Positions 30,565 to 52,953 of a DNA stretch of 64,000 nucleotides are shown one piece after another (positions within the stretch are counted from its first letter, which is position 1; every line of letters starts with the position of its first letter). The stretch is taken from positions 32,001-96,000 of IMG/VR virus record IMGVR_UViG_3300002092_001784; one strand, written 5' to 3'. Below the pieces are notes generated by a model. That model made no database searches, was not told the origin of the DNA, and saw nothing but the letters and a program-made list of their open reading frames with translations. Origin of the DNA: a virus (Duplodnaviria; Caudoviricetes). A program made the translations under genes and the position numbers.

Positions 30565-32001
30565 ATGACAGAATATAAAGTAGGAGACATTAGAAACGGT
30601 AGTGAGGTAATACCTGCGGAGCAGAGAAAGAAGATATTACTTCTATCTGATGATTTGAGAATGGCGAGCGGTATTGCTACAATGTCCAAAGAATTTGTAT
30701 TAGGTACAATTCATAGGTATAATTGGTTTCAAGTTGGTAGTGCTATCAACCACCCAGACCAAGGAAAGATTTTGGATGTAAGCGCTGATACAAAGAACGT
30801 AACCGGTATATCTGATGCAAATCTAAAAATTTTACCGTGGAATGGATATGGAAATGCAGATTTACTACGGCAATTGATTAACGCAGAACGGCCGGATGCT
30901 ATACTTCATTTTACAGACCCACGATATTGGACATGGTTATATGATATTGAACATGAGATAAGACAAAATGTTCCAATCTTATACTACTCAATTTGGGATG
31001 ATTTACCTGACCCAATGTACAATCGTAATTTTTATGAAAGTTGTGATTGGATCGGTTGTATTTCCAGACAGACTTATGGCATTACCAAAAGAATGATGTC
31101 TAAAGCAGATAAATCAACATGGAAACCATTTAAGGAATGGCAAGCAAATTATGTACCACATGGTATCAATACTGATGTTTACAGACCAATAACTGTACCT
31201 GATGAATTTAGAAAAGAAATTTTGGGAGATAAAGAATATGATTTCGTATTATATTGGTCTAACAGAAACATTCGTAGGAAACAACCAGCCGATGTTATTT
31301 ACGCTTTCAAGCTTTTTTGTGATAAAATTGGAAAAGAACAGGCAGATAAGGTTTGTTTATTAATGCACACACAACCTGTGGATGAAAATGGAACAGATTT
31401 ACCAGCAGTTATTGCCGCAGTTGCACCTGATTGTAATATCATTTTTTCGGACAAACGAAGAGGTACTGATCAATTAAATCTACTATATAACATAGCAGAT
31501 GTAACTATTAACATTGCTAATAATGAAGGATTTGGATTAACTACGGCTGAAAGTGTAATGGCAGGTACTCCAATTATAGTAAATGTTACTGGTGGATTGC
31601 AAGATCAATGTGCATTTACTGTAAAAGGTAAGTTATTAACAGCAGAAGATTACATTGAAATCGGTTCTTTACACAACTGGAGAAAGTGGAAATCAAAAGT
31701 TAAGTGGGGTGAGTGGGTAACTCCAATTTGGCCAAAAGCACAATCATTGGCAGGTTCAATCCCAACACCGTATATTTGGGATGATCGCGTTGATATTGAG
31801 GATGTGGCTGAAGCCATTTTAGAGGTATACAAAGTTCCAAGTCCAGAACGAAAAACTGCTGGTCTTAAAGGTAGGGAAGCATTCATTACCAAAATGGGAT
31901 TAAACACTGAAAATATGTGTAAAACAATGGCGGATGGTATTGATACTACTCTTAAAAATTGGAAGCCAAGAGAACGTTATGAACTTTTCAAAATTAGATA
32001 A
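30565..32001 (+). CDS. glycosyltransferase family 4
   Basis: NRNIRRKQ, YNIAD, EGFGLTTAESVMAGTP. Confidence 0.88.
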   Translation: MTEYKVGDIRNGSEVIPAEQRKKILLLSDDLRMASGIATMSKEFVLGTIHRYNWFQVGSAINHPDQGKILDVSADTKNVTGISDANLKILPWNGYGNADLLRQLINAERPDAILHFTDPRYWTWLYDIEHEIRQNVPILYYSIWDDLPDPMYNRNFYESCDWIGCISRQTYGITKRMMSKADKSTWKPFKEWQANYVPHGINTDVYRPITVPDEFRKEILGDKEYDFVLYWSNRNIRRKQPADVIYAFKLFCDKIGKEQADKVCLLMHTQPVDENGTDLPAVIAAVAPDCNIIFSDKRRGTDQLNLLYNIADVTINIANNEGFGLTTAESVMAGTPIIVNVTGGLQDQCAFTVKGKLLTAEDYIEIGSLHNWRKWKSKVKWGEWVTPIWPKAQSLAGSIPTPYIWDDRVDIEDVAEAILEVYKVPSPERKTAGLKGREAFITKMGLNTENMCKTMADGIDTTLKNWKPRERYELFKIR

Positions 32002-32007
32002 TAAGTT

Positions 32008-33291
32008 ATGAATAAACCAATATTAGTATTTCAAGGACCTTGTTTCACTCGTAGCGGATACGGGGACCATTGCAGAGATTTATTGAAATCTCTTAGGAGC
32101 ATGGACAAATATGATGTAAAAATAGTTCCCATGCGATGGGGCAATACTCCACAAAATCAATTAGACCCTTCAACCGAATTTGGACAATGGATGTTGCAAA
32201 ATGTAATAACTCAATTGGATGCAAAACCCGATGTGTTTATGCAAGTTTCTGTTGCAAATGAATTTGAACCAAAGGGTAACTACAATATAGGTATTACTGC
32301 TGGAGTTGAAACTACACTCATTCCTAAAGATTTCATAGATGGTACAAACAAAATGGATTTGGTAATAGTACCATCACAGTTTACGAAACAGGTGTTGGTG
32401 TCTACAATGTACCAGTCCAAAGATAATCGGACAGGCAAAGTAGTAGAAGAAATTAAAGTAACAAAGCCGGTTGAAGTTTTATTTGAAGGGGTTGATACTG
32501 AAATATATTCAGCCGGAAATGGTGTAGATATTCTTAAAGATGTAACGGAAGATTTTGCGTTTTTGAGTGTAGGCCATTGGTTAAAGGGAGATATTGGACA
32601 AGACAGAAAGGATATTGGAATGTTGATAAAAACATTTGCAACGGTATTTCAATATCTTCCAAAAGAAAAAAGACCCGCACTAATATTAAAAACTTCACAT
32701 GCTGGATTTTCAGTAATGGATAGGGAGTTAACCCGTGAGAAGATTGAAACCATATTAAAGGGAATGGGTGATAAATGCCCATCGGTATATTTGCTGCACG
32801 GTGATTTAAGTGATGCTGATATGGCATCATTGTATCATAACCCAAAGGTGAAGGCTATGGTATCGTTTACAAAAGGTGAAGGATATGGTAGACCATTGGC
32901 AGAGTTTACATTAACAGGCAAACCAATATTGGTATCAAATTGGAGTGGACAGTTGGATTTTCTACCGGCCGATAAGGCAGTATTATTGGATGGGCAATTG
33001 ACACAGATTCACGAATCTGCGGCAGACCAATTCATTATTAAGGAAGCCCAATGGTTTACAGTTAATTATAGTAATGCGGCAAACAAAATGTATGATGTAT
33101 ATAAGAACTATCCGACGTACTTAAAAACTTCGGAAAAGCTTAAAGATAATACACTGAATGGGTTTACTTTAGATAAAATGAATACGGTATTTTCAAAAAT
33201 ATTAAATACTTATGTAAAGGAAGCTCCTAAAGTTGTTCCGTTTAGTTTACCAAAACTAAATATGATTAAACCATTAGAAAAAACTGAATGA
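32008..33291 (+). CDS. glycosyltransferase family 4
   Basis: SGYG, RKDIG, GEGYGRPLAE. Confidence 0.85.
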   Translation: MNKPILVFQGPCFTRSGYGDHCRDLLKSLRSMDKYDVKIVPMRWGNTPQNQLDPSTEFGQWMLQNVITQLDAKPDVFMQVSVANEFEPKGNYNIGITAGVETTLIPKDFIDGTNKMDLVIVPSQFTKQVLVSTMYQSKDNRTGKVVEEIKVTKPVEVLFEGVDTEIYSAGNGVDILKDVTEDFAFLSVGHWLKGDIGQDRKDIGMLIKTFATVFQYLPKEKRPALILKTSHAGFSVMDRELTREKIETILKGMGDKCPSVYLLHGDLSDADMASLYHNPKVKAMVSFTKGEGYGRPLAEFTLTGKPILVSNWSGQLDFLPADKAVLLDGQLTQIHESAADQFIIKEAQWFTVNYSNAANKMYDVYKNYPTYLKTSEKLKDNTLNGFTLDKMNTVFSKILNTYVKEAPKVVPFSLPKLNMIKPLEKTE

Positions 33292-33752
33292 TATTTACTT
33301 TGCAATACGATAAAATGATAGAAAGTGAGAAACCAATCGCTAGAAATCGTGTATTGCCAAGAAATATGTACAGAATCAAATCATACACTTACGCGGATGG
33401 ACATCATGAAAATTTAACAGGTATTCATTCTGCGTTAGTGTTTGTTTTTGGTAGAGATCAAGACACTTTATACTGCCTTAAAATTAATGAAGTACGGCCT
33501 ATTAAATTTTTTGATTGGTTGGCTACGATACTCGCTCACAAACATTTCAATTGGGATAATGTTGAAGAATTAAGAGAGGCAATTATTGTATCGGATAGGG
33601 CAGGTAAAGGTATATGGAAACGACAAATACATGGGAAATCCCCATACATATTACCCGCAAGTATATATCGAACTTATAAAATAAGTAGTATATCATTGAT
33701 CCATGAAATTTATTTTAAGACAAATGTACTGAAAAAGAATTTACCAAGATAA
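33288..33752 (+). CDS. hypothetical protein
   Basis: 154 aa ORF, ATGA-coupled. Confidence 0.65.
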   Translation: MIFTLQYDKMIESEKPIARNRVLPRNMYRIKSYTYADGHHENLTGIHSALVFVFGRDQDTLYCLKINEVRPIKFFDWLATILAHKHFNWDNVEELREAIIVSDRAGKGIWKRQIHGKSPYILPASIYRTYKISSISLIHEIYFKTNVLKKNLPR

Positions 33753-33787
33753 AATTGGATAACTTAAAAAATTATCCAATTTTTTTT
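33751..33787 (+). terminator. intrinsic terminator
   Basis: AAAATTGGATAA/TTATCCAATTTT 12-bp stem followed by a T tract. Confidence 0.65.
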
Positions 33788-33806
33788 GTGTTTTCTCAAA
33801 AAATAT

Positions 33807-33814
33807 ATATTTAT
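33807..33814 (+). promoter_or_regulatory. ATATTTAT putative phage promoter box
   Basis: Heads the 33842-47283 glycan operon. Confidence 0.5.
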
Positions 33815-33841
33815 ATATAATAACAATTAAACTAATAAGTT

Positions 33842-34480
33842 ATGAATATTCCAATCACATACGCAATTACCGTTTGCAATGAACTAGAAGAAATCGTTAA
33901 GTTGGTAGATTTCCTCATACCAAAAATTAATACTGAAGATGAAATTCTAATTCAATATGATACCGATGCTGCGACAAAAGAAGTAGTTGATTATTTGAAT
34001 ATTATTTCACAAATTCATTCTAAGTTGATACGAGTAATTAACTTTCCACTGAATAACGATTTTGCTTCTTTCAAAAATAATCTGAAGAATCACGCTAATG
34101 GTATCTATATTTTCCAAGTAGATGCAGATGAAATTCCATCGGAATATCTTGTGACAAATCTTAGTATGTTTTTGGAGCATAATAAAGATGTGGATTTATT
34201 TTTTGTACCACGAATCAATACAGTTGATGGGTTGACAGATGAACACATTAAAAAGTGGGGATGGAATATCAGTCCCAATGATTGGGTGAACTTTCCCGAC
34301 TACCAAACTAGGATATACCGCAGAACATCTGAAATCGAATGGGTTGGTGCAGTACATGAACGTATTGTTGGGTATAACACATTATCAGTACTACCTGCCG
34401 AAGAACAATTTTGCCTATATCACCATAAACAGATAGAACGACAGGAAAAACAAAACGAATACTATTCTACTTTAGCATGA
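33842..34480 (+). CDS. glycosyltransferase family 2
   Basis: YAITVCNE, FQVDADE, PDYQTRIYR, VHERI. Confidence 0.85.
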   Translation: MNIPITYAITVCNELEEIVKLVDFLIPKINTEDEILIQYDTDAATKEVVDYLNIISQIHSKLIRVINFPLNNDFASFKNNLKNHANGIYIFQVDADEIPSEYLVTNLSMFLEHNKDVDLFFVPRINTVDGLTDEHIKKWGWNISPNDWVNFPDYQTRIYRRTSEIEWVGAVHERIVGYNTLSVLPAEEQFCLYHHKQIERQEKQNEYYSTLA

Positions 34481-35463
34481 AAATAGCATTTCTTACAGAA
34501 ATAAAGGGGGCCGGTAAAATTCCAAAAGCGTTTCCCAATATGAGAACAGAATTTGCATGGATGCATACATTAGGTGCAGTTCATCACAATATTGAGTTAT
34601 TTAATTCGGTGGAAGGATATGATCATGTTTTTATTATTTTTCCAAAGGGTAGGGTATTTTTAAGTGCGGAGGGAATTAAAATAGTTAGTGCGGTTAACCC
34701 AGTATCGGAATTATTACAATCTGATATAGTTTCTGTATTAAAAAATAATAATACAAAGGTACATTATATACAGGAAGGACCACATTGGTGGTTCAATGAT
34801 TATGATGTGGCTGACCAAATTTATTTTTTTAATTTATTATCTAAATGTGATAGTATATTCGTACATAATCAGTATGATGTAAATTATTATCAGGGTATGT
34901 TTATGGATAAACCAATTCATGTCATACCTACGTTAATGATTGAAGAATTACTTTCTGATATAATTCCAATTAAGCAAGATAAAGTTATAATTGGTGGAAA
35001 CTTTGCACATTGGTATGGTGGATTTGAAAGTTATGTAGTGGCCGGTACATTGGGGATACCCATTTGGGCTCAGGACTCTCATGCAAAACGTGAATATGAA
35101 TCTGAAGTTCCGAACCTAAACCATTTACCACGGTTAATATGGGTGGATTGGATGAAAACCTTATCTGAATTTAAGTATGCAGTACACCTTATGCCAACCG
35201 TTGCTGCTGGTACATTTTCATTGAATTGTGCATATTTTTCTATACCATGTATTGGCAATGAATTGTTGGATACTCAACGGATATGTCACCCAGAACTTTC
35301 AGTTGATGTTTCTGATTTGAAACGGGCAAATAAACTGATATATCAATTACATACCGATAAAGAATTTTATAATGAATGTAGTAGAACCGCAAAGGAGAAT
35401 TATCATAGGTACTATTCGGAAGTAGTTTGGAAAGATAATATGAATAAAAAATTACAATTATGA
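34477..35463 (+). CDS. probable GT-B glycosyltransferase
   Basis: C-terminal GTFSLNCAYFSIPCIG resembles the GT4 donor-binding helix; operon context. Confidence 0.55.
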   Translation: MKIAFLTEIKGAGKIPKAFPNMRTEFAWMHTLGAVHHNIELFNSVEGYDHVFIIFPKGRVFLSAEGIKIVSAVNPVSELLQSDIVSVLKNNNTKVHYIQEGPHWWFNDYDVADQIYFFNLLSKCDSIFVHNQYDVNYYQGMFMDKPIHVIPTLMIEELLSDIIPIKQDKVIIGGNFAHWYGGFESYVVAGTLGIPIWAQDSHAKREYESEVPNLNHLPRLIWVDWMKTLSEFKYAVHLMPTVAAGTFSLNCAYFSIPCIGNELLDTQRICHPELSVDVSDLKRANKLIYQLHTDKEFYNECSRTAKENYHRYYSEVVWKDNMNKKLQL

Positions 35464-36233
35464 GTATAACAGTTATATTAAACGGTTACAAACGTGGTGA
35501 TCATTTAGACGAGCAACTTAGGGCTTTACAGAATCAAACGATTCAACCAGATGAAATTTTACTATGGTATAATAATCCCGGCGATGATTCGGAAATCAAT
35601 TATAATATTGGTACTCAGATACCTGCGGCATATTGTAACTACAACTTCGGTGTATGGGCACGGTTTACTTTCGCATTAAACGCTCGCAGTGAGTTTGTTT
35701 GTGTGTTTGATGATGATACCATACCCGGTTCAAAGTGGTTAGAAAACTGCCTTAATACGATGAACAAGACGGAAGGATTGTTGGGTACGGTTGGTTTATT
35801 ATACCTCAATCCATTACCACCGGTACAATCATCTTATTATGAACACTATATTCGGTTTGGCTGGCCGGAAAGTGGGAACAACGAACGGACAGTTGAGGTG
35901 GATTTGGTCGGACATAGCTGGTTCTTTAAGAAAGAATGGTTATCTTATATGTTTAGAGAATTGCCAGACCCAAAATATAATACTTGCGGTGAAGATATGC
36001 ACTTTAGTTATATGTTACAAAAATATGCAGGTATAAAAACATTTGTACCGCCACATCCAATTTCAGATAAAGAATTGTGGGGTAGTATAAAGGGGGCAGA
36101 ATATGGTGGAGACCAAAATTCACTATGGGAGAGCAATCAACGAAGTATAGATGGTATACCATTTAGAGCACTAATGAATGATTACTTTTATAATCAACGA
36201 ATGAATGGATGGAGGTTATGTAATGAAAAATAA
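35460..36233 (+). CDS. GT-A / family 2-like glycosyltransferase
   Basis: VILNGYKR, CVFDDD, VDLVGHSWF, GEDMHF. Confidence 0.75.
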   Translation: MSITVILNGYKRGDHLDEQLRALQNQTIQPDEILLWYNNPGDDSEINYNIGTQIPAAYCNYNFGVWARFTFALNARSEFVCVFDDDTIPGSKWLENCLNTMNKTEGLLGTVGLLYLNPLPPVQSSYYEHYIRFGWPESGNNERTVEVDLVGHSWFFKKEWLSYMFRELPDPKYNTCGEDMHFSYMLQKYAGIKTFVPPHPISDKELWGSIKGAEYGGDQNSLWESNQRSIDGIPFRALMNDYFYNQRMNGWRLCNEK

Positions 36234-37227
36234 ATTACCAATATTGATTTGTTTTGGAACAAGGCCAGAATGGTTGAAGGTTAAACCATTGGTGGACATT
36301 ATGAAAGATGATGAATATGTTTTGTTATTTACAGGTCAACACCCTGATTTGTTAAATGAGGTTGGTGTAGATAGACGTATAAAAATCATAGATTATGAAA
36401 ACCGATTAGATGCCGTTATTAGTAGTTGTATGCTACAATTTCCCGAAGGGAAATACAGAGCAGTACTTGTACAGGGAGATACCGCATCTGCCTTCGGATG
36501 TGCGATAGCAGCGTTTAATAGGCAAATTAAAATTCTGTATATGGAAGCCGGATTACGCAGTGGTAATTTGAAGCACCCGTATCCAGAAGAAGGATATAGA
36601 CAGATGATTTCTCGTATATCCGATATTAACTTTGCACCTACTGAATTATCAGAAACAAATTTATACGAAGAAAAGACACATGGTGATACTTTTGTGACAG
36701 GAAATACAATTTTGGACAGTTTAATTGGTTATGGTAACCCAACCTATGGTAATAGAGTATTGGTAACTTTACATCGTAGAGAAAATCATTTTTGGATAGA
36801 CCAATGGTTTGATGAAATTAATAAACTTGCAGTAGATAATCCAGAATTAGAGTTCATAATGCCAATACATCCAAATCCAATGGTAATCGCATTTAGAAAA
36901 CTATTACCAAATGTGACTTTGGTTGACCCTCTTGGACATGATGAATTAATTGGAATATTAAAAGATTGCAAATTAATAATAACCGATAGTGGTGGTTTAC
37001 AAGAAGAAGGCTCGTTTTTCAATAAAAAAGTGATTGTGTGTAGAAAAACAACAGAAAGACCGGAAGGTATTAAAAGTGGACATTTATATATGTGTGATTC
37101 CCCAAATAAACTTAGGAAATTATTTGTTAAATTGAATAAAAAACCGTATATTTGTAGCCCATGTCCATACGGTGATGGAAATGCTGCACAAAACATCTAT
37201 GATATAATACGAAATGAAAAATTTTAA
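36223..37227 (+). CDS. wecB: UDP-N-acetylglucosamine 2-epimerase (non-hydrolysing)
   Basis: GTRPE, TGQH, VQGDT, EAGLRS, VTLHRREN, TDSGGLQEE, TERPE, PYGDG. Confidence 0.93.
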   Translation: MKNKLPILICFGTRPEWLKVKPLVDIMKDDEYVLLFTGQHPDLLNEVGVDRRIKIIDYENRLDAVISSCMLQFPEGKYRAVLVQGDTASAFGCAIAAFNRQIKILYMEAGLRSGNLKHPYPEEGYRQMISRISDINFAPTELSETNLYEEKTHGDTFVTGNTILDSLIGYGNPTYGNRVLVTLHRRENHFWIDQWFDEINKLAVDNPELEFIMPIHPNPMVIAFRKLLPNVTLVDPLGHDELIGILKDCKLIITDSGGLQEEGSFFNKKVIVCRKTTERPEGIKSGHLYMCDSPNKLRKLFVKLNKKPYICSPCPYGDGNAAQNIYDIIRNEKF

Positions 37228-37990
37228 GGAGCATTTTGAATTTTTTACAAAAAAACTGTTAAATAAGGAAAACTTTGCGTTTTCACGATATTCTGATGGT
37301 GAGTTGTATATTCTTCAAAATAAAGAGTTGGTTCTTGGTGATGGTGTAATAAAAATAGGAGATCGGATTCAAAGAGGATTTTATCGAACGGAAGATCATA
37401 AACATTTTGATCCAAATCAACATTCATTTTATAGAGATAAATTAATTGAAGCATACAAACATCGTCAGATAGGTTATTACAAAGGTATAGGTTGTCAATG
37501 TTGTGTGGGTAAAGAAGCGTTTGATTGGCAACTTGAATTACATGGTGGTGATGATGAATCGCTTACGTGGGCAAACCTTTGGGTGAATGGTAATTATCCC
37601 AGTTTTGTAAGTAATATACTACCGATATTTTTTAGTAGAGATTGTGTATTCATTTGTAATGATAAAGCAAATTTGACACGTTTACCATTCGTTGTGAAGG
37701 ATTTTAGAGTAGGATATAATGCAATGGTAAATGATTATAATAAAATTGAAGATATAAAGAAATGGATCGGTGACAACAATATAGTTAATCATATTTTCTT
37801 ATTTTCAGCATCAACATTCAGTAATTTGGCAATATATGAACTCTATAAAGAATATCCAAATAACACTTATATTGATATTGGGACTTGCCTAACTCCGATG
37901 ATGGATATGCCAACGGAACGTAGTTATTTGCAAGAATATTGGAATTACATACAAGGCAATGACCTTCAAAAAATATGTATATGGAATTAG
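37214..37990 (+). CDS. GT-D fold (DUF1792-like) glycosyltransferase
   Basis: FSRYSDGE motif; C-terminal IDIG. Confidence 0.6.
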   Translation: MKNFKEHFEFFTKKLLNKENFAFSRYSDGELYILQNKELVLGDGVIKIGDRIQRGFYRTEDHKHFDPNQHSFYRDKLIEAYKHRQIGYYKGIGCQCCVGKEAFDWQLELHGGDDESLTWANLWVNGNYPSFVSNILPIFFSRDCVFICNDKANLTRLPFVVKDFRVGYNAMVNDYNKIEDIKKWIGDNNIVNHIFLFSASTFSNLAIYELYKEYPNNTYIDIGTCLTPMMDMPTERSYLQEYWNYIQGNDLQKICIWN

Positions 37991-38385
37991 GTAGAATTGA
38001 ATTTAACTTAGTAGAATGTAATACGGAATATTGGGAGTTTGTTAGGGAACTTCGTAATGATAGTAGAGTGATTGGTGGTTTTATAGAAACTACATATATT
38101 ACACCAGAAATGCAAAACGAATATATGAAACTACATCAACATGAATATCGTATTGGTTTACTCTATGGAAAGCCTGTTGGTTATGTTGGTGTAATTGAAG
38201 ATGATATTCGAGTCTGTACCCATCCGAATTATCAGAAATTAGGAGTTGGTAAATTTATGATAAATGAAGCTATGAAGATATGGCCAACTGCGTTTGCGAA
38301 AGTAAAGATTGATAATACTGCAAGTCTAAAATTGTTTGAATCTTGCGGGTTTACACAAAAATATGTAATTTTAACAAAAGATTGA
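37975..38385 (+). CDS. GNAT acetyltransferase
   Basis: YQKLGVG acetyl-CoA motif A; NTASLKLFESCGF. Confidence 0.85.
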   Translation: MYMELGRIEFNLVECNTEYWEFVRELRNDSRVIGGFIETTYITPEMQNEYMKLHQHEYRIGLLYGKPVGYVGVIEDDIRVCTHPNYQKLGVGKFMINEAMKIWPTAFAKVKIDNTASLKLFESCGFTQKYVILTKD

Positions 38386-38386
38386 T

Positions 38387-39637: not shown

Positions 39638-39638
39638 T

Positions 39639-44384: not shown

Positions 44385-44393
44385 TAAATTACA

Positions 44394-45557
44394 ATGAAAA
44401 AAATAACATTTTGTATACCAACTAAGAATAATTTGAGATACCTTAAAGGGTGTATTCAATCAATACGAGAAAACAGTACATATGATAATGATATTATCGT
44501 ATTTGTAGATTCGGACAATGATGGAACTATTCATTGGTTAAAGGAAAATAGTATAAATTGCCTAATAAATGATAGTGGTACTCCAAAAGGTATTGCGTAT
44601 GGCTATAATCGATGTATTGAATCGGCTAAAACCAATATAGTATGTATGTTTCATGCTGATATGTATATGGCTAAGGGATTTGATACTGCTATACTGAAAC
44701 ATCTAAAACCGTTATCGGTAGTTAGTGGTACTCGTATCGAACCACCATTACACCCAAAGGGACAGGAGAAGGTGGTTGAAGATTTTGGTATGTATCCAGA
44801 AGATTTTAAGAAAGATGAATTTGAAGCATATACTGCCAAATTTAGCACCTTATATGAAGGTGTTACAACGCGCGGTATATTTGCTCCTTGGGCAATCTAT
44901 AAAGAAGATATAACCTCAATGGGTATGCACGATGAGATGTTCCATTCGTATCACGAAGATAGTGACATATTCAATCGTTTTATATTAAATGGGTATGAAA
45001 TAATTCAAACATGGGAGGGGTTGGTATATCATCTAACATGCAGAGGCGGTCAGTTTCAAGACGGAATCGAAAAAGTGACAACTGATACATTTTTTCATAA
45101 AATGAAAAATAATGCGTTCCGTAATTATGTTAGAAAGTGGGGCAGCTTTATTAAGAATGATATTCACCAATATCCAATAATACCTCACAAATATAATATA
45201 GGTCTTTATTTGAAAAATGGAACACCTGAGTTACTTAATATGTTAGAGCCGTGGTGTTCCAGTATATTTGTATCATTGCCAAACTCAGTTATTCAGAAAT
45301 ATATTACCGATGAACAGCCAAATACCAATGTAAACCTAAAAGAAAAAATAAATAGTGTACGCAGTGATAGTAGACCGGATATAACAGTAACGGTCGATGG
45401 TAGTAAATTAACACAACAATCTATTAATTTCATTTTTACATTATGTGAAATTTTGGATGCGAACGATTTGGTAGCCGGTGAATATGATTTTGATATATTT
45501 TCAATCACTGTATATAGAATCAATCATATTGAGAAGAATTTAATTAATAATAAATAA
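44394..45557 (+). CDS. glycosyltransferase family 2
   Basis: FCIPTKNN, FVDSDNDG, FHADMY, HEDSD. Confidence 0.85.
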   Translation: MKKITFCIPTKNNLRYLKGCIQSIRENSTYDNDIIVFVDSDNDGTIHWLKENSINCLINDSGTPKGIAYGYNRCIESAKTNIVCMFHADMYMAKGFDTAILKHLKPLSVVSGTRIEPPLHPKGQEKVVEDFGMYPEDFKKDEFEAYTAKFSTLYEGVTTRGIFAPWAIYKEDITSMGMHDEMFHSYHEDSDIFNRFILNGYEIIQTWEGLVYHLTCRGGQFQDGIEKVTTDTFFHKMKNNAFRNYVRKWGSFIKNDIHQYPIIPHKYNIGLYLKNGTPELLNMLEPWCSSIFVSLPNSVIQKYITDEQPNTNVNLKEKINSVRSDSRPDITVTVDGSKLTQQSINFIFTLCEILDANDLVAGEYDFDIFSITVYRINHIEKNLINNK

Positions 45558-46402
45558 TGAAAACAGTATTAGTTACAGGTGGTTGTGGTTTTATTGGTTA
45601 TGCTTTAACGGGGGAACTTATTAGGAGAGGATATTCTGTTGATGTTATTGATAATCTTTCTATTGGACGTGAAGCTAAAGATGTATCAGATACTGGGGCT
45701 ACATTTTTACATGGTGATGTAAGGGGTATGGAAAACTTAATTATGAGACCACATGATTATGTTTTTCATTTGGCAGCATTAAGTAGAATACAACCATCTT
45801 TTCAAAACCCAACACAAACTTTTTCGGTAAATGTTGATGGTACTCGGCAAGTTATAGAATATGCACATCGTACTAAAGCTAAACTGATATATGCCGGTTC
45901 TTCTTCACGATGGCATAACCCAACATTATCACCATATGCTATGAGTAAACATATGGGAGAAGAGTGGATTAAGATGTATAAAAAGGTATATGGACTAAAT
46001 TCTGAAATAGTTAGGTTTTACAACGTATATGGGCCCGGAGAATTAGTGGATTCGCATATGGCGGCTGTAATTGGATTATGGCGGTCCGCAATTAAAAAAG
46101 GTCAACCGATTTTAATACACAGTGATGGTGAGCAACGTAGAGATTTTACTCACATTGATGATATTATAGATGGATTGATTAAAATTGCAGAAAGTGATGA
46201 AACCCATGAAGATGCGTGGGAATTGGGTACTGGGAAGAATTACTCATTAAACGAAGTTGCTGATATGTTTGGGGCTGACCGGAAATATACAGATGATGTT
46301 AAAGGTAATTATAGAGAAACATTAAGAGTTAATAATGATGCTATTGATAGATTGGGATGGCAACCTAAAGATAGATTAAAACAATATATAGACGGATTAT
46401 GA
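45557..46402 (+). CDS. NAD-dependent nucleotide-sugar epimerase/dehydratase
   Basis: VTGGCGFIG, FHLAA, YAMSK, RFYNVYGP, RDFTHIDD. Confidence 0.92.
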   Translation: MKTVLVTGGCGFIGYALTGELIRRGYSVDVIDNLSIGREAKDVSDTGATFLHGDVRGMENLIMRPHDYVFHLAALSRIQPSFQNPTQTFSVNVDGTRQVIEYAHRTKAKLIYAGSSSRWHNPTLSPYAMSKHMGEEWIKMYKKVYGLNSEIVRFYNVYGPGELVDSHMAAVIGLWRSAIKKGQPILIHSDGEQRRDFTHIDDIIDGLIKIAESDETHEDAWELGTGKNYSLNEVADMFGADRKYTDDVKGNYRETLRVNNDAIDRLGWQPKDRLKQYIDGL

Positions 46403-47283
46403 AAAAAAGTACATTAGTAGTAGTGCATTGTATGCCAACCGAAATAGAAATGCTGGAACGCTTTATGGTACGGTATCGTAAATCACTTTCGCATTTGGAT
46501 AGTAATGATGATGTTACATTAAAAGTGACACTAAACCTAAACCCTAAACTTACAGATTGGGATGTTAGTGAATTGAAGCAGGATTATTTTATAAAACGAT
46601 TTGATACATTGTTTGATGATATTAAAAGTGTAAATGAAATTCAATTGGGTGATTCGTTAATGGGAACTACTCAACAGAAACGAGAAAGTATTGAGTTGGA
46701 TTACGACCAATTTATATTTTGTGATCCAGATGTAATTACGCATGAGTTGTTATTGGCAACTCAAATCCATACATCATACGATATGAACGGTATGTATATC
46801 ATATCACCATCATTACCTAAATGGTGGGATTATACTTGGAATCAGTTATGTCATTCTGATTATGTAAACCGACCATATCAATACGCATATAGCGATGAAT
46901 GTATATTAAACGCAGAAATCCAAACAGTTTCCGATATAACTGTTAAACCTATTAGTAGAATAAAATTTGGATGTGGTATGCATACTTTATATTCCAAAGA
47001 ATTTTGGAAGTTTATCGGAATACCCGAATCGTTGGGGGGTTATGGGCCGGAAGATACATATGCAATGCAAGCAGCATCCTTAGCTATAAAGTTCGGTTAT
47101 GATATTAAACAATTTGTATTGGATGGCATTTACATTACGGAAGATTTGATAAATAAAAAATGTGAAATCGAAAGTAAAATAGTAAAAGTTGATAATAAAT
47201 CAGAACTGTATAAAAATGGTGAAGATAACAGTAAAATAGAATTAGTGAACTTTGGTAAAAAACTATACACTTTTTTGAGATAA
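46399..47283 (+). CDS. hypothetical GT-A-like protein
   Basis: FCDPD DxD motif; GGYGPED. Confidence 0.55.
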   Translation: MKKSTLVVVHCMPTEIEMLERFMVRYRKSLSHLDSNDDVTLKVTLNLNPKLTDWDVSELKQDYFIKRFDTLFDDIKSVNEIQLGDSLMGTTQQKRESIELDYDQFIFCDPDVITHELLLATQIHTSYDMNGMYIISPSLPKWWDYTWNQLCHSDYVNRPYQYAYSDECILNAEIQTVSDITVKPISRIKFGCGMHTLYSKEFWKFIGIPESLGGYGPEDTYAMQAASLAIKFGYDIKQFVLDGIYITEDLINKKCEIESKIVKVDNKSELYKNGEDNSKIELVNFGKKLYTFLR

Positions 47284-47296: not shown

Positions 47297-47304
47297 ATAT
47301 TTAT
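47297..47304 (+). promoter_or_regulatory. ATATTTAT putative phage promoter box
   Basis: Intergenic, upstream of 47368. Confidence 0.5.
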
Positions 47305-47367: not shown

Positions 47368-47979
47368 ATGCAAATGATTGAAATATATGCAAGTGTGTTA
47401 ATCGCATTAATAACTACTTTGTTTGGCCCGTTGTTTGTCACTTGGGTTCGACATAGAATAGTTAAAAAACCCAAAGATGCATTGGTTGGAGATTTAATTG
47501 AGCTCGAAAAGGTGGATATTGAATTACAAGAAATACTTGATTACCTTAATGCAGATAGAGTGTGGATAACACAACTTCATAACGGTGGCCATTTCTTACA
47601 TTCCAATAAATCTATGAAGAAGTTTTCGGTAATGTATGAAGTTACGTCTGCTGGAATTTCTACCATATCATCTACACTTTCAAATATACCAATGACGTTA
47701 TATTCGGCATTGTTTAAGGAATTATTAACTAACAAAAAGGTAATAGTACATGATGCACTTGCATCCTGCAACACCTATGGATTAAATAATATAGCAACAA
47801 GTTCAGGTACTGTATCATTTTATATTGTGGGTATGTTTGATTTCGGAACAGAATTTCTTATCGGTATGGTTGGTGTTGATTATTTGGAAGAAACCCAACT
47901 AACAGATGAACAGTTGGAATATTTGCAATTTAAGGTAGAAAAAATATCAGGATACCTGTCGGCAAAATATAAAAGATAA
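47368..47979 (+). CDS. single-TM membrane protein with GAF-like domain, possible holin
   Basis: N-terminal hydrophobic helix then ADRV...HNGG...GMVGVDY. Confidence 0.45.
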   Translation: MQMIEIYASVLIALITTLFGPLFVTWVRHRIVKKPKDALVGDLIELEKVDIELQEILDYLNADRVWITQLHNGGHFLHSNKSMKKFSVMYEVTSAGISTISSTLSNIPMTLYSALFKELLTNKKVIVHDALASCNTYGLNNIATSSGTVSFYIVGMFDFGTEFLIGMVGVDYLEETQLTDEQLEYLQFKVEKISGYLSAKYKR

Positions 47980-48512
47980 TGATAGCAAGGAGTTTATTTA
48001 CAGAAGATAAGAAATTGAGAGTGTTTGACTTTGATGATGTTTTGGTCAAAACAACATCATTTGTTTATGTGACTCATAAAAATGGAAGTAAGCAAAAGTT
48101 ATCACCCGCACAATATGCTGTATATAAAGAACAACCGGGTGATATATTTGATTACAAAGATTTTCAGCAGGTATCCAATCCAAAATTGATAAAGGGATAT
48201 GTTGAATTATTAAAAAGAATTGTCAATTCCGGTGGAGACCGTAAAGTCTATATATTAACAGCAAGAAATGCTTATAAACCCGTATATGATTTTATTAGAC
48301 AATTAGGGGTTCGTAATGTTGAAGTAATAGCATTGGGTGATTCAAATCCAGAAAAGAAAGCAGATTGGATTGAAGATCAAATTAAATCCAATGGATATGA
48401 TGATGTGTTTTTTGTAGATGATTCTATTAAAAATGTGGAAGCAGTTCGTAAAAGATTACAAAAATATCCTAGCATAAAGAAAAAAATACAACTGGCAAAA
48501 AGTTCCAGTTAA
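47979..48512 (+). CDS. HAD-family phosphatase
   Basis: VFDFDDVL, ILTARN, K, FFVDDS. Confidence 0.8.
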   Translation: MIARSLFTEDKKLRVFDFDDVLVKTTSFVYVTHKNGSKQKLSPAQYAVYKEQPGDIFDYKDFQQVSNPKLIKGYVELLKRIVNSGGDRKVYILTARNAYKPVYDFIRQLGVRNVEVIALGDSNPEKKADWIEDQIKSNGYDDVFFVDDSIKNVEAVRKRLQKYPSIKKKIQLAKSSS

Positions 48513-48540
48513 TAAACGAATATTAACATTGACACCCATA

Positions 48541-49017
48541 ATGAGTTATATATATTGGTTCACAGGAAACTATGGTGCTGGTAAAACCACAATTGGCACT
48601 AAGTTAAAAGAATTTCTTCAAACCGAAAAACGTAATTGGCGTAAAACGGTATTTTATATTGATGAAACCGAATTACGAAATATCACAAATAACACAGATT
48701 ATTCATCGGAAGGTAATCACAAAATAGTTGTAGATATTCAACTAATAACAAAATTCTTGCATAATAACATATGCGATGTTATTGTGACATCAACCTCACC
48801 AAACAGAGAGTTACGGGAGCAGTTTAAGAATGAAATGGGTGATTCTGTAATTGAGATATATACCCACACTAATCGTAAACGGAAAACGGACGCACTTAAA
48901 GTTGATAATTATGAAATACCGGAATCCAATTTTATAGATATGGATACTACGCATGATAATCCTGCACAATCATTTTCGAACCTGATAACTCACCTAAAAT
49001 CTATAAATAAGTTATAA
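48541..49017 (+). CDS. adenylylsulfate (APS) kinase-like P-loop protein, divergent
   Basis: IYWFTGNYGAGKTT, TSPNRELR, YEIP; canonical LDGD reads IDET. Confidence 0.6.
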   Translation: MSYIYWFTGNYGAGKTTIGTKLKEFLQTEKRNWRKTVFYIDETELRNITNNTDYSSEGNHKIVVDIQLITKFLHNNICDVIVTSTSPNRELREQFKNEMGDSVIEIYTHTNRKRKTDALKVDNYEIPESNFIDMDTTHDNPAQSFSNLITHLKSINKL

Positions 49018-49033
49018 TTAGTATATTAAAGTT

Positions 49034-49576
49034 ATGGAAGATTCAGTATTTGACCCAACGCAAAACTTATCCCTAGCCCCTAAACAACGGTCTAAACGTG
49101 GATTTGCATCACGTCCCCTAATGGAATCAGAAATCAGAGATGTTCAAAAAAGAGCACGTTCTGCTGCCGAAGCCGCAAGATTATTGGGTGTAGTTTATAA
49201 TACCTATAAAAAATATGCACAAATGTATGGTATATTTGAGGACTTAAAAAATCCGTCTTGTATTGGTATTCCTAAAAAATCAAATGGTGGTATTGGTAAC
49301 TACCCGTTAGATGATATATTGGCAGGTAAGCACCCTACTTATGATATATCCAAACTAAAAAAGAGATTACTATTAAATGGGTATTTGGAAGAGAAGTGCT
49401 GTTTGTGTGGTTATGAAGAAAGAAGATTAACAGACCACAGAGTACCATTGGTATTGGATTTTGTGGATGGGGATCGGAAAAATTTCTTATATGATAACCT
49501 ACGCATGCTATGTCTAAACTGTTCATTCCTACACAATGGAAATCTGACAGGACCAAAACAACTCTACTATTATTGA
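49034..49576 (+). CDS. HNH endonuclease-like protein with N-terminal HTH
   Basis: CCLCG...LDFVDGDRKNFLYDNLRMLCLNC. Confidence 0.75.
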   Translation: MEDSVFDPTQNLSLAPKQRSKRGFASRPLMESEIRDVQKRARSAAEAARLLGVVYNTYKKYAQMYGIFEDLKNPSCIGIPKKSNGGIGNYPLDDILAGKHPTYDISKLKKRLLLNGYLEEKCCLCGYEERRLTDHRVPLVLDFVDGDRKNFLYDNLRMLCLNCSFLHNGNLTGPKQLYYY

Positions 49577-49583
49577 TAATAAA

Positions 49584-49615
49584 TTTGGAAAAGTGAAAAA
49601 TTATTAGTATCTTTG
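49584..49615 (+). promoter_or_regulatory. Bacteroidota sigma-70-type promoter
   Basis: TTTG-N20-TATCTTTG. Confidence 0.75.
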
Positions 49616-49646
49616 TATAAATTAAACAATTAAAATAAAAACAGTT

Positions 49647-49859
49647 ATGAGCAAGTATTTTGAAGTTTCAGTTGAAGTTGTCGTATCTACGGCTAAGAAT
49701 GGCAAAGAAAAAAAGAACAAGGAAGTATACCTCGTTGACTCAATGTCAGTTACCGAAGCAGAAGCGCGTGTAGTTAAAGATTTTACCGATGCTGGAGTTG
49801 TGTTAGACTATAAAGTTGTTTCGGTAAAGGAGAGTAGAGTAATTCAAGTAATTGAATAA
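49647..49859 (+). CDS. DUF4494-like protein
   Basis: EVYLVDSMSVTEAEARV resembles the Bacteroidota DUF4494 motif. Confidence 0.6.
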   Translation: MSKYFEVSVEVVVSTAKNGKEKKNKEVYLVDSMSVTEAEARVVKDFTDAGVVLDYKVVSVKESRVIQVIE

Positions 49860-49861
49860 TT

Positions 49862-50110
49862 ATGGAAACAGATATTAAAGAAGAAAAAGTAGTAGTTTTG
49901 AAACGAAACCCGCCCGGTGATAGGTGGAGTTTCGTTTCAGAACCATCTGGCACAGTGTATCCATCATTAACGGCTGGGTTGGATGCGTGGTATCAAACCA
50001 ATGGTAATACGAGTTTTTTTATTGATGCAAGGGCTGGAACAGTAAGTGTTGTTAAATCAGTAGAAGTTGAAAGACCAATTGAAAAGTATTCTTTATACGG
50101 AGAATATTAA
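49862..50110 (+). CDS. hypothetical protein
   Basis: 82 aa ORF. Confidence 0.6.
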   Translation: METDIKEEKVVVLKRNPPGDRWSFVSEPSGTVYPSLTAGLDAWYQTNGNTSFFIDARAGTVSVVKSVEVERPIEKYSLYGEY

Positions 50111-50125
50111 AACAGAACGATGTTT

Positions 50126-50133
50126 ATATTTAT
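50126..50133 (+). promoter_or_regulatory. ATATTTAT putative phage promoter box
   Basis: Within an AACGAT/ATCGTT inverted repeat upstream of 50169. Confidence 0.5.
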
Positions 50134-50168
50134 ATAAAATTATCGTTTAATTGTATAAACCTATTATA

Positions 50169-51020
50169 ATGAGTAAGAAAATCCTAAATGAAATAAAAAG
50201 TATCTCTAATGAACTGAAAGAAATTCGTAAGAGTATGTTGCTTCAAATGATTACAGAAGGTGTTGATGATCCGGGAATCCTAAAATGTGTATTTTTAGCA
50301 GGTGGACCGGGTTCGGGTAAAAGTTATGTGGCCAATGAAATATTTGGTATGACAGATGAAATGAAAAATCAAACATTTTCCGCATCTGGGTTGAAGATAG
50401 TTAATTCAGACCGTGCATTTGAAAAAGTACTTAAAGATTATGGTATAGACCCAAAAGATTTAGCAAAGATTGAAAAAGACGAACCTGAATTTTGGAATAA
50501 CATTGTATTAGGACAACTTAGAACTAAAGCCAAAACTATTACAAATACGCAAAAATCATTTTACGAAATGGGAAGGCTTGGAATGATAATTGATGGTACT
50601 GGTGATGAAGTTTCATCTATACTTGAAAAGAAAGTCAAAGCTGAAAAAATGGGGTATGATTGTTATATGATTTTTGTGAATACTTCTTTGGAAGTTGCTC
50701 TATATCGTAACGCACACCGTTCTAGGCAGTTGAGCGAAAAATTAGTTAAAGAAATATGGCATAAATGCCAAAATAATTTAGGTAAGTTCCAACACATATT
50801 TGGACCAAGATTTACTATTGTTGATAATACATCAGGTGTACCGTTTCATTGGACGGATACGGATACCAAAGGTAGGGAATATGAAATGGATACGGCTGTT
50901 GCACGTGGAGTGCTGGCTGCTGTTAATAAATTCGTTAATGCACCTTTGCAAAATCCAGATGGCAAAAAATGGGTATTGAGCGCTAGGGCATTAAAAAACG
51001 CTAATTTGATAAATAAGTAA
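50169..51020 (+). CDS. zeta-toxin-like / AAA_33 P-loop kinase
   Basis: FLAGGPGSGKS, VNSD, IIDGTG, IFVNTSLEVAL.RN..R.R. Confidence 0.75.
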   Translation: MSKKILNEIKSISNELKEIRKSMLLQMITEGVDDPGILKCVFLAGGPGSGKSYVANEIFGMTDEMKNQTFSASGLKIVNSDRAFEKVLKDYGIDPKDLAKIEKDEPEFWNNIVLGQLRTKAKTITNTQKSFYEMGRLGMIIDGTGDEVSSILEKKVKAEKMGYDCYMIFVNTSLEVALYRNAHRSRQLSEKLVKEIWHKCQNNLGKFQHIFGPRFTIVDNTSGVPFHWTDTDTKGREYEMDTAVARGVLAAVNKFVNAPLQNPDGKKWVLSARALKNANLINK

Positions 51021-51021
51021 C

Positions 51022-51153: not shown

Positions 51154-51170
51154 TCGTTACGAAATCTATT

Positions 51171-51341
51171 ATGAAAAATGAAAAATTTTATATCGAGAAA
51201 TTAATTCTTGATGATGAGTATGCCGATGATATTGTATTGGACAAGACTACAAAAATAAGTAAATTCAAAAGAAACAATCCAAAGAAGCCAAAAAGTAAGC
51301 ATCACCAAAATGTGGAAGTTTTTGAAGATGAATTGGATTAA
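51171..51341 (+). CDS. small charged hypothetical protein (56 aa, not in the ORF track)
   Basis: ATG..TAA ORF MKNEKFYIEK...FEDELD fills the gap. Confidence 0.5.
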   Translation: MKNEKFYIEKLILDDEYADDIVLDKTTKISKFKRNNPKKPKSKHHQNVEVFEDELD

Positions 51342-51353
51342 ATACAAATTAAT

Positions 51354-51812
51354 ATGTTACAACACTACATTTCACATAGAGGAAATTTAGATGGTCGGAT
51401 TCCTGATAAAGAAAACCATCCATCTTATATTAATGACGCTATTGCTTCCGGATATGAGGTTGAGATTGATGTTTGGATGATTGAAGGTGTCCTATTTTTA
51501 GGACACGATGAACCCCAATATGGTATAACTCAACATTGGTTGAATGAACGTTCGGATAGATTATGGATACATTGTAAAAACACTGAAGCAGTTGAATGGT
51601 TCAGTAGTATTACAGGGTTTTGGTGGTTTTGGCATGAATCGGATACACTTACTTTAACATCAGCTGGCCACCGTTGGGTATATCCCGGAAAACAACCAAT
51701 CAATAGAAGTATCGCAGTACTGCCGGAAATACATAACGATGATGTCAGTCAATGTGTTGGTATTTGTTCAGATTATATACAAAACTATAAATACCAGTTC
51801 ACCCACGTATGA
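51354..51812 (+). CDS. PLC-like / glycerophosphodiester phosphodiesterase-fold protein
   Basis: ISHRGN, ENHP, VEIDVW, LGHD, IHCKN, ICSD. Confidence 0.7.
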   Translation: MLQHYISHRGNLDGRIPDKENHPSYINDAIASGYEVEIDVWMIEGVLFLGHDEPQYGITQHWLNERSDRLWIHCKNTEAVEWFSSITGFWWFWHESDTLTLTSAGHRWVYPGKQPINRSIAVLPEIHNDDVSQCVGICSDYIQNYKYQFTHV

Positions 51813-52132
51813 AAATCAATAAATTAGATGAAATGTTTCGTGGTTGGTTTGTTGGTAACTTTGAACCTACATTATACCTTACCAATGATGTTGAAGTGGC
51901 AGTTAAACGATACAATAAAGGAGATTATGAAGCAGCACATTACCATAAAATAGCAACAGAGATAAGTGTTGTTATATCAGGTCGTGTCAGAATGAATGGT
52001 ATTGAATATGGTGCTGGGGATATTATTACAATGGAGCCCGATGAGGCAACCGATTTTGAAGCACTGGAAGATGGTACAGTAAATGTAGTAGTTAAACTAC
52101 CTGGAGCTAACGATGATAAATATTTAGTATGA
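51809..52132 (+). CDS. cupin-domain protein
   Basis: HYHK..TE..V.ISG cupin motif 1. Confidence 0.8.
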   Translation: MKINKLDEMFRGWFVGNFEPTLYLTNDVEVAVKRYNKGDYEAAHYHKIATEISVVISGRVRMNGIEYGAGDIITMEPDEATDFEALEDGTVNVVVKLPGANDDKYLV

Positions 52133-52953
52133 AAATAGCACTTTGTTTTTCTGGCCATATAAATGACTTGAATGATACTAAAGAATATTGGACAGGGCTG
52201 ATTAAAAAATATGATATTGATGTATATGGTTCGTTTTGGGAGGATGAACATATAGAGTTTGGTGATACTGCTGAAAACTTCTTAAACATATATTCGCCGA
52301 AACGGTTTGAAGTTGAGAATTATGAAGCATTTAAGACATCAACTCAAGATTTAGTATCTATGAATATTGATCCACCTGCTGAAATCGAATCATTTTTTAT
52401 GGGTACTACTAAACGGTTTGGTCAGTTATCTATGTATTACAGAATATGGAGATGTAATATGCTTACCAAACAAACCGGTACTAAATACGATTTAGTTATT
52501 AGAGCACGGACAGATACTAAGTTAGATGATAACTTTGAAATAACTTACAATGAAATGTTGAATGTGCCGGTTGGTATTGTGTGTGCATATGTATTGCCTA
52601 ATTCATTTGGGTATAATGATTGCTTTGCGTATGGTACTCCAAAGATAATGGATTATTACAGTTTTCTGTTTTTACGCATGATGGAATACCTTAAAGCAGG
52701 ATATTATGCATTACCGGCTGAACATTTTCTTTTAGTTCATTTTTCAAAAATACACATACAGGTTAGACAGATGGCCAATTATATAACCGTTACACGTACA
52801 TCCAAACGAATGCCGGATGAGGTATATAATCGCACCACATCACCATTCGAAGAAAATGTACAATGGAGCGATTGGTGGGAAGACACTATCTCAAATCCAG
52901 CCCAATTTGGAAATTTTATGAAAGCATCAATTAAAGACGATTTTGTGGTTTAG
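52129..52953 (+). CDS. hypothetical glycan-locus protein (same paralog family)
   Basis: MKIALCFSG, DVYGSFW, YDLVIRARTD, NDCFAYG. Confidence 0.65.
   Translation: MKIALCFSGHINDLNDTKEYWTGLIKKYDIDVYGSFWEDEHIEFGDTAENFLNIYSPKRFEVENYEAFKTSTQDLVSMNIDPPAEIESFFMGTTKRFGQLSMYYRIWRCNMLTKQTGTKYDLVIRARTDTKLDDNFEITYNEMLNVPVGIVCAYVLPNSFGYNDCFAYGTPKIMDYYSFLFLRMMEYLKAGYYALPAEHFLLVHFSKIHIQVRQMANYITVTRTSKRMPDEVYNRTTSPFEENVQWSDWWEDTISNPAQFGNFMKASIKDDFVV

Follow-up and report, generated by a model that had tools for sequence, protein, structure and literature searches.

The 64,000-nucleotide stretch analysed here (the window) comprises bases 32001-96000 of the 266,153-bp virus record IMGVR_UViG_3300002092_001784 and carries an island of glycan-related genes, which are referred to below by their first base in the window; coordinates that refer to the whole record are marked "genome". 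An earlier note, made from the letters of the window, had described a capsule-scale glycan locus at 30565-52953. That wording is fair for the number of genes, and glycan-related genes were found at 30565-47283 and 51354-52953, but the genes at 47368-51020 are of other kinds. Up to 14 proteins of glycosyltransferase (GT) fold, one of them frameshifted, were recognised in the island, where 9-10 had been counted before. The remaining products are WecB, a short-chain dehydrogenase/reductase (SDR), a GNAT acetyltransferase, a methyltransferase, a HAD-nucleotidyltransferase, a mini GDPD-like protein, a weakly matching cupin and a 208-aa DegT-like protein (Table 1). Gaps between the genes are mostly -40 to +9 nt, indicating the extensive translational coupling that had been proposed. 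The main part of the island is flanked by clamp-loader and nuclease genes on one side and by GroES/GroEL on the other.

The phage carries genes for PolB, tail sheath, baseplate hub and GroES/GroEL together with a gp23-type capsid gene (PF07068, 1.6e-75), and all of its long open reading frames (ORFs) lie on the plus strand. The best match of PolB was to Microcystis phage Mel-JY01 (50% identity), the nearest cultured relative by this protein, and none of 50,697 phage records matched the 22-kb region by megablast. To judge from its genes, this is an uncultured freshwater jumbo phage related to T4. The 'Moraphages' (PMC12619734), considered as a description of it, were rejected as a different, non-T4 lineage. 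No integrase was found in the phage genome, which is consistent with a lytic phage and excludes lysogenic conversion. The G+C content is ∼0.31-0.39, with no compositional break at the island. Intergenic DNA is enriched in two motifs, GTATCTTTGTA and ATATTTATA. The former is of the TAnnTTTG type, which we take to be the housekeeping -7 element of Bacteroidota; as no Shine-Dalgarno sequences were seen either, the phage probably infects Bacteroidota.

The first two transferases, 30565 and 32008, form an adjacent GT-B pair. The best sequence match of 30565 in the PDB was chlorovirus NY-2A B736L (3OY2, E 1.3e-10), and Foldseek analysis of its structural model (pLDDT 86) again returned 3OY2 first, followed by MshA and PimB'. 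Gene 32008, which matched TIGR04047 at 1.5e-7, is a distant paralogue of 30565 and was linked to the 30565 family by local hidden Markov model (HMM) iteration. Assignment of the two as an initiating pair of the GtfA/GtfB type that acts on serine-rich repeat proteins was supported by neither sequence nor fold: the top matches of the pair were B736L, MshA, PimB' and trehalose/sucrose-phosphate synthases, and GtfA was absent among the best 50 of at least 500 matches.

Several further transferases were recognised by comparison with the ESM Atlas. The clusters closest to 34477 were viral 'GT family 1' entries, and 40325 resembled a giant-virus GT8/Gly_transf_sug protein (template modelling, TM, score 0.75) and a Bacteroidota GT2 (0.67). 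HMM searches of 37214 against Pfam, NCBIfam and PHROG yielded no match; by its features it scored 0.93-0.96 with viral clusters in which 12-68% of the members have PF22882/PF08759. The clusters nearest to 34477, 37214 and 40325 were 82-100% viral. Gene 46399 has a paralogue at genome 128188-129099 (BLASTP 2e-30). In Pfam and NCBIfam searches, no family was assigned to 33288, 37214, 39639, 40325, 42414, 43713, 46399 or 52129.

Local HMM iteration united 39010/39080, 39639, 42414, 43713 and 52129 in a single WavE-like family, of which a further paralogue lies at genome 125744-126691. Against the PDB, the model of 39639 matched glycogenin (0.99) and alpha-1,3-GalT/GT6 enzymes with probabilities of 0.97-1.0, indicating a retaining GT-A fold; an AFDB entry annotated as 'WavE lipopolysaccharide synthesis' (E 9e-11, TM 0.65) and giant-virus glycosyltransferases were also matched. 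The gathering score of Pfam WavE (PF07507) was reached by no island gene, and the only ORF of the genome to score on it was the paralogue at genome 125744-126691 (22.5 bits against 27). PDB profile searches with alignments of this family (A1) and of the 46399 family (A2) returned nothing useful. The WavE-like gene that had been proposed holds as a member of a GT-A/WavE-like fold family, but 39010 is not intact, being frameshifted within a run of seven T. With six T instead, its frame would read ...IIFSTWEDAD, as in an intact 211-aa homologue (L060:7958-8593) that itself has no Pfam match. Contigs of four metagenome DNA runs agreed with the sequence of the region and were identical in the T7 run, which rules out a one-off assembly error. 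Gene 39010 could be a pseudogene, or the run could be a slippage-prone or phase-variable site.

Family evidence from HMM searches was obtained for the WecB, NDP-sugar epimerase, GNAT, SAM methyltransferase and HAD-nucleotidyltransferase that had been named in the locus. WecB exceeded the cut-off of the NCBIfam equivalog TIGR00236 (216.2 against 210.15 bits) and scored only 34 bits on the NeuC model, so that synthesis of UDP-N-acetylmannosamine (UDP-ManNAc) is well supported. The fusion protein 41050 matched the NDP-sugar pyrophosphorylase 4EVW (1.9e-21) and also beta-phosphoglucomutase in the PDB. The SDR 45557 scored ∼90 bits against each of the heptose epimerase, RmlB and GalE models, every one of these scores falling under its cut-off. 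The suggested cupin and phosphodiesterase were recovered in weaker form, the former below the Pfam cut-off and the latter with its GDPD motifs in place and a marginal match to the PDB GDPD 7E0V (E 0.014), which weakens the case for phosphate decoration.

For the proposed DegT aminotransferase, homology and the pyridoxal phosphate (PLP) lysine were borne out, but not a complete enzyme. At 208 aa, the protein lacks ∼75 internal residues and the C-terminal domain of a fold-type-I enzyme, which is complete at ∼360-400 aa, and only residues 66-130 and 207-264 of the 399-aa enzyme 7B0D have a counterpart in it. The PLP-lysine motif SF(H/Y)xxK is kept, SFHIKK standing opposite SFYPTK. This short form recurs in ∼12 relatives with ∼83% identity, and other relatives encode a DegT of 368-436 aa. 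The mini-DegT is thus conserved, with uncertain activity, and its truncation makes the presence of amino sugars in the glycan a weaker proposition.

The products of the non-glycan interruption are a protein with transmembrane and GAF-like regions, a HAD/PNK-phosphatase-like protein, a P-loop kinase, an HNH endonuclease, a DUF4494 protein, whose gene stands behind a host-type promoter, and a P-loop ATPase. In relatives, homologues of 51354 and 52129 come directly after the 41050 homologue, so the island of this phage appears to be split by an unrelated insert. The 333-nt apparent gap that follows the insert (window 51023-51340) contains two small ORFs of ∼43 aa (very basic) and ∼56 aa.

Apart from the non-glycan 47368, no protein encoded between 30565 and 52953 has a transmembrane segment. 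The lack of export machinery and of an initiating transferase, noted earlier for the locus, was found to extend across the 266-kb genome. At E ≤ 1, neither PF02397 (WbaP/PglC) nor PF00953 (WecA) had a match in the whole genome, although 11-13 of 14 control genomes were positive, and PF01943 and PF01757 were likewise absent from the whole genome and matched in control genomes. No polytopic candidate for a flippase, polymerase or exporter was present genome-wide, as judged by hydrophobic segments and not by separate Wzy or ABC-2 models: more than two such segments occur in only two proteins, one tape-measure-like and the other a coiled-coil membrane protein, and neither is glycan-related.

The boxes that had been seen to head genes of the locus, ATATTTAT(A), proved to be strand-specific and largely intergenic. 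Copies of ATATTTAT are at 29743, 33807, 47297 and 50126, in and just before the locus. Genome-wide, ATATTTAT occurs in 76 plus-strand and 31 minus-strand copies, and 53 of the 76 ATATTTAT copies on the plus strand lie within intergenic DNA, which makes up 11% of the genome. The longer form TATATTTATATA, with one mismatch allowed, is present 31 times on the plus strand versus 9 times on the minus strand, nearly always between genes and 10-120 nt before a start codon. Besides the island, it heads operons for a collagen-like tail fibre (phrog_5073), the sheath (phrog_23), a head-tail adaptor-like/neck protein and the baseplate hub, as well as an operon of a scaffold-like gene with gp23 and homing-endonuclease genes. 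By contrast, replication genes have host-type TAnnTTTG promoters or are box-free, and the neighbours of the island, a CobT-like gene downstream (53363) and a nuclease gene upstream (28626), have host-type promoters. In relatives, the box is kept before homologues of 29778 (13 of 17) and 33288 (23 of 37). Given that it heads structural operons, the box may be regarded as a late-type promoter, in agreement with the late promoters proposed earlier. No RNA run was on record as containing the region. A scan for sigma-70-type promoters was not above chance (114 sites versus 119.6 expected), and the only convincing terminator, a strong 16-bp stem at 28556-28591, lies upstream of the island.

Host-type promoters (GTATCTTTGTA) flank and interrupt the late units at window 28556-28625, 49577-49646 and 53170-53330, those after the last island gene lying at ∼53190-53320. 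The late unit of the first two transferases also contains, at window 29983-30558, a gene for a 2H phosphoesterase-like protein of the 2'-5' RNA ligase superfamily; this protein weakly matches Acb1, which counters the cyclic-oligonucleotide-based anti-phage signalling system (CBASS). Elsewhere, the paralogues at genome 125744-126691 (WavE-like) and 128188-129099 (46399-like) form a third small glycan-related group, near which ATATTTAT boxes stand before the genes at genome 123149 and 125246.

Table 1. Coordinates of the island genes, promoter boxes, insert and candidate acceptors (window positions unless marked "genome").
Position	Strand	Feature	Evidence or context
29742..29753	+	Late-type box TATATTTATATA	Heads unit of 66-aa ORF, 2H phosphoesterase-like gene, GT-B pair and 33288
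30565..32001	+	Retaining GT-B (GT4-type) glycosyltransferase, 478 aa, anchor gene	PF00534, 34.5 bits vs cut-off 26.4
32008..33291	+	Second GT-B glycosyltransferase, 427 aa, anchor gene	phrog_2170 'glycosyltransferase', 1e-17
33288..33752	+	Conserved basic 154-aa protein	No family match
33806..33817	+	Late-type box	Heads 14-gene coupled run 33842-47283
33842..34480	+	GT2 (GT-A) glycosyltransferase, 212 aa, anchor gene	PF00535, 32.3 bits
34477..35463	+	GT-B fold glycosyltransferase, 328 aa	ESM Atlas, TM 0.75-0.78 to bacterial GT4 clusters
35460..36233	+	GT2 glycosyltransferase, 257 aa	PF00535, 27.4 bits
36205..37227	+	WecB, non-hydrolysing UDP-GlcNAc 2-epimerase, predicted product UDP-ManNAc	PF02350, 2.9e-62
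37214..37990	+	GT-D-like protein, 258 aa, lead only	ESM Atlas language-model features
37975..38385	+	GNAT N-acetyltransferase, 136 aa	PF00583, 1.1e-8
38387..39013	+	Truncated DegT-like protein ('mini-DegT'), 208 aa	PF01041, 5e-21, two stretches
39010..39637	+	WavE-like GT-A gene, +1 frameshift in T7 run 39093-39099	
39639..40364	+	WavE-like GT-A fold glycosyltransferase, 241 aa	phrog_13607; model pLDDT 80
40325..41053	+	GT-A fold protein, start probably at residue 11	ESM Atlas structural TM score
41050..42417	+	Fusion of beta-phosphoglucomutase-like HAD and sugar-1-phosphate nucleotidyltransferase	PF13419, 6.9e-29; PF00483, 1e-12
42414..43025	+	WavE-like family member, 203 aa	Local HMM iteration; aligned in A1
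43009..43716	+	SAM (S-adenosylmethionine)-dependent methyltransferase, 235 aa	PF08241, 1.2e-13
43713..44384	+	WavE-like family member, 223 aa	phrog_13607, 8e-6; local HMM
44394..45557	+	GT2 glycosyltransferase, 387 aa	PF00535, 3.5e-12
45557..46402	+	Short SDR NDP-sugar epimerase/dehydratase, 281 aa	PF01370, 7.9e-45
46399..47283	+	Probable GT-A protein	Invariant D..F/I..DxD motif in alignment A2
47297..47304	+	Late-type box	Precedes non-glycan insert
47368..51020	+	Non-glycan interruption	
50125	+	Late-type box	Within non-glycan insert
51354..51812	+	Mini GDPD-like phosphodiesterase, 152 aa	Invariant HRGN..EN..E.D..GHD motifs; phrog_34507
51809..52132	+	Small cupin-like protein, 107 aa, weak	PF07883, 19.3 bits vs cut-off 27.2; phrog_24762
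52129..52953	+	WavE-like family member, 274 aa, last island gene	Local HMM
genome 199-2799, 4304-6430, 215536-225969, 256858-257664, 260640-262715		Fibre-type proteins with collagen-like runs	

A relative of 41050 is encoded in at least 594 IMG/VR stretches (tblastn E ≤ 1e-3), and comparisons were made among the best 80 of these loci, in which its homologues are 70-82% identical. In the 80 loci the position of the island is fixed, after clamp-loader and PD-(D/E)XK nuclease genes, and its content is mosaic. Anchor genes recur across them, namely 30565 (53 loci), 32008 (54), 33842 (56), 51354 (57), 41050 and 46399; homologues of 33288 were found in 38. Other genes behave as minority cassettes: WecB with 37214, GNAT and mini-DegT in 12-17 loci, the methyltransferase in 10 and 42414 in one. 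The most conserved gene is 41050, which with 51354, adjacent to it in most relatives, forms the most conserved module; its predicted product is an NDP-sugar or NDP-polyol-phosphate. Read from gene presence, such anchors combined with swapped cassettes are what would be expected if a glycan on a conserved acceptor were under diversifying selection.

A second glycosylation set was found at genome 226357-230812 (L094:11358-15813), behind a host-type promoter and directly after the gene for a 3477-aa fibre (genome 215536-225969). It encodes a GT1-methyltransferase fusion, a 385-aa homologue of TibC, a cytidylyltransferase-like protein and a PfkB kinase, the last two being of split HldE type. Enzymes of the TibC type act in the cytoplasm, where they add heptose to serine residues of surface proteins. 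The phage homologue aligned with 4RAP over residues 42-377 (E 2.3e-51, 178 bits), LPS (lipopolysaccharide) heptosyltransferases were not among its matches, and it is kept in both complete relatives at 61-65% identity. A literature search found no paper on phage TibC-like enzymes. Five fibre-type proteins of the phage carry collagen-like (G-S/T-S/T)n runs composed almost purely of Gly, Ser and Thr (GTSGSSGTSG...), among them the 3477-aa fibre, with GTS/GSS runs, and the giant fibres of relatives (3000-4600 aa) contain many such blocks.

Since the island shares its late-type promoter with virion genes, the glycan is most likely built on newly made virion proteins. The TibC homologue, the fibre repeats, the grouping of the transferases with viral proteins and presumed late co-expression also favour glycosylation of the phage's own particle, with serine/threonine-rich fibres as the likeliest acceptors, a reading in which we place about even confidence. 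The earlier note had favoured cytoplasmic assembly on virion proteins; both of its premises, the missing export genes and the late-type box, hold, and the acceptor is what we infer from them. Under this scheme WecB would provide UDP-ManNAc, the HAD-nucleotidyltransferase fusion and its mini GDPD-like partner would provide an NDP-sugar or NDP-polyol-phosphate, and the SDR, GNAT, methyltransferase and DegT-like protein would tailor the activated sugars. Up to 14 soluble GT-A, GT-B and GT-D-like transferases would then build an oligosaccharide entirely in the cytoplasm. With the island driven by ATATTTATA, the late-type promoter common to virion genes, the glycan would be put directly on new virion proteins, those fibre proteins that bear collagen-like (Gly-Ser/Thr-Ser/Thr)n runs being the best candidates. 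Finally, the anchor transferases would recognise a conserved acceptor while swappable cassettes vary the outer sugars, giving each lineage a glycan type of its own.

A more specific proposal, which is possible but tentative, is that of a complex, lineage-specific O-glycan on the collagen-like fibre stalks. The TibC-like enzyme and the conserved GT-B pair, for instance, could prime Ser/Thr residues in the cytoplasm, after which the swappable island transferases would add ManNAc-derived, methylated and phosphodiester-linked sugars, as a counterpart of the BclA/anthrose or serine-rich-adhesin systems. If this is true, virions would come in 'glycotypes' with effects on host range, on stability or on losses to grazing and adsorption.

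Several points weigh against glycosylation of the virion. The main island lies between replication-type genes and GroES/GroEL and adjoins no structural gene, and the promoter class is assigned solely by association with genes. Glycosyltransferases of O-antigen and capsule synthesis are also soluble or peripheral, so the absence of transmembrane segments is equally compatible with action on undecaprenyl-linked intermediates of the host. The first transferases of the island resemble generic GT4 enzymes (MshA, PimB'), which give no clue to an acceptor, and with the DegT-like protein truncated and one transferase frameshifted, part of the pathway may be inactive. Acceptor, sugar identities and expression timing are, moreover, inferred from the genes.

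The alternative that survives best, though we consider it rather unlikely, is remodelling of the host envelope, in which the soluble transferases would act at the inner membrane face on undecaprenyl-PP-linked intermediates of host O-antigen, capsule or O-glycosylation. The phage would rely on the initiating transferase, flippase and ligase of its host and would change the cell surface during a long infection, e.g. so as to block superinfection or to stop progeny from binding to debris. Modification of host O-antigen is the published reading of the multi-glycosyltransferase clusters of T4-like cyanomyophages and pelagimyophages (PMC7029224) and of jumbo phages (PMC7824862). Those 'LPS-like' clusters share with the present phage a T4-type core (gp23, PolB, sheath), paralogous glycosyltransferases, NDP-sugar genes (PfkB kinase, nucleotidyltransferases) and a content that is polymorphic between close relatives, and in both cases function is deduced from the genes. 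The island draws on the same enzyme families (GT2, GT4, WavE-like, WecB, SDR, DegT/GNAT) as LPS and capsule loci, NDP-sugar genes and several GT2/GT4 in one co-directional block are likewise common to bacterial O-antigen/capsule loci, and the swapping of cassettes is like the diversity of O-antigen loci. However, the island here lies between replication genes and GroES/GroEL rather than in a tail-fibre hypervariable region, and is headed by the promoter box of structural, not early, genes, in a phage that probably infects Bacteroidota. Lipid-carrier, flippase, ligase and acyltransferase genes are nowhere in the genome, the transferases fall in viral rather than host-like clusters, a homologue of a protein-targeting heptosyltransferase (TibC) is present, and lysogenic conversion is precluded by the lack of an integrase. 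Host O-antigen modification is accordingly less likely here than virion glycosylation.

It is unlikely that the island serves some other cytoplasmic acceptor, such as a free oligosaccharide or glycoconjugate, non-structural host or phage proteins, or small molecules, for use as a decoy, in storage or in evasion of defence. All of the enzymes are soluble and none points to a given acceptor, and the GT4 relatives MshA, BshA and trehalose/sucrose-phosphate synthases do act on small molecules, but at least 10 transferases with swappable cassettes are less in keeping with a metabolite than with a surface-exposed glycan subject to diversifying selection, and presumed late co-expression with virion genes likewise speaks for such a glycan. 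Hypermodification of DNA, in which the transferases would glycosylate modified phage bases in T-even style, is very improbable: the phage is T4-related and 30565 scores weakly on PF20706 'GT4-conflict', a GT4 family of conflict/defence systems (27.0 bits against a 26-bit cut-off), but the single PF00303 gene is an ordinary ThyA (its top 60 PDB matches are all thymidylate synthases, with no dCMP hydroxymethylase), a late-type promoter would be wrongly timed for replication-coupled modification, the terminal F/Y-W tag of clamp-associated modifiers is on no island protein, and WecB, GNAT and DegT-type tailoring with more than 10 transferases far exceed known DNA glycans. Metavirome enzymes for the glycosylation of phage DNA bases have reportedly been described by Pyle et al. 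2024. The thymidylate synthase gene (genome 186185-187459) encodes 424 aa with an insertion of ∼100 residues, residues 12-356 corresponding to Pfam model positions 1-249.

Virion glycosylation, the reading preferred here, has counterparts in other viruses. Giant viruses possess autonomous glycosylation clusters, including those for the fibril glycans of Megavirinae (PMC10117803) and the capsid glycans of chloroviruses. As in these viruses, the phage combines NDP-sugar pathways of its own (UDP-GlcNAc 2-epimerase-type, aminotransferase/acetyltransferase and methyltransferase genes) with many soluble transferases and a clade-specific cluster content; the giant-virus glycans are on the virion surface, where that of the phage would also lie. 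The likeness extends to individual enzymes: among solved structures, B736L of chlorovirus NY-2A (3OY2) gives the best match to 30565, and many structural neighbours of the WavE-like family come from giant viruses. Unlike giant viruses, this is a tailed phage of bacteria, and the homology lies in single enzymes and not in the whole cluster.

A parallel in phages is the virion glycosylation of mycobacteriophages (Freeman et al. 2023, cited in PMC12619734), in which one to a few transferases encoded beside structural genes reportedly modify C-terminal tails. Here too, capsid or tail proteins would receive their sugars from phage-encoded enzymes within the host cytoplasm, but with up to 14 transferases and sugar-nucleotide synthesis, encoded away from the structural genes, and with collagen-like Ser/Thr repeats as the candidate acceptors. 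The second cluster appears to resemble TibC/Aah (4RAP) in its full-length homology, its adjoining HldE-type genes for a predicted supply of ADP-heptose and its giant repetitive Ser-rich surface protein; unlike in TibC/Aah, which act on an autotransporter with repeats of 19 residues, the acceptor proposed here is a phage fibre bearing G-S/T-S/T repeats.

Clusters with many transferases were already known from T4-like and jumbo phages, as was virion glycosylation from other viruses. To our knowledge, virion glycosylation by phage-encoded enzymes has not been shown for T4-related phages, and what is added here is a set of convergent, indirect arguments that suggest a virion target. The clade is abundant in lakes, as reflected in the at least 594 IMG/VR stretches with a 41050 relative, and it offers a testable case that unites a late-promoter island, a TibC homologue beside a giant fibre gene, collagen-like Ser/Thr candidate acceptors and cassette swapping. 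Should the particle prove to carry the glycan, phage 'glycotypes' would constitute a new axis of diversity and host-range evolution in Bacteroidota, and the common 'LPS' annotations of aquatic phages would need to be revisited.

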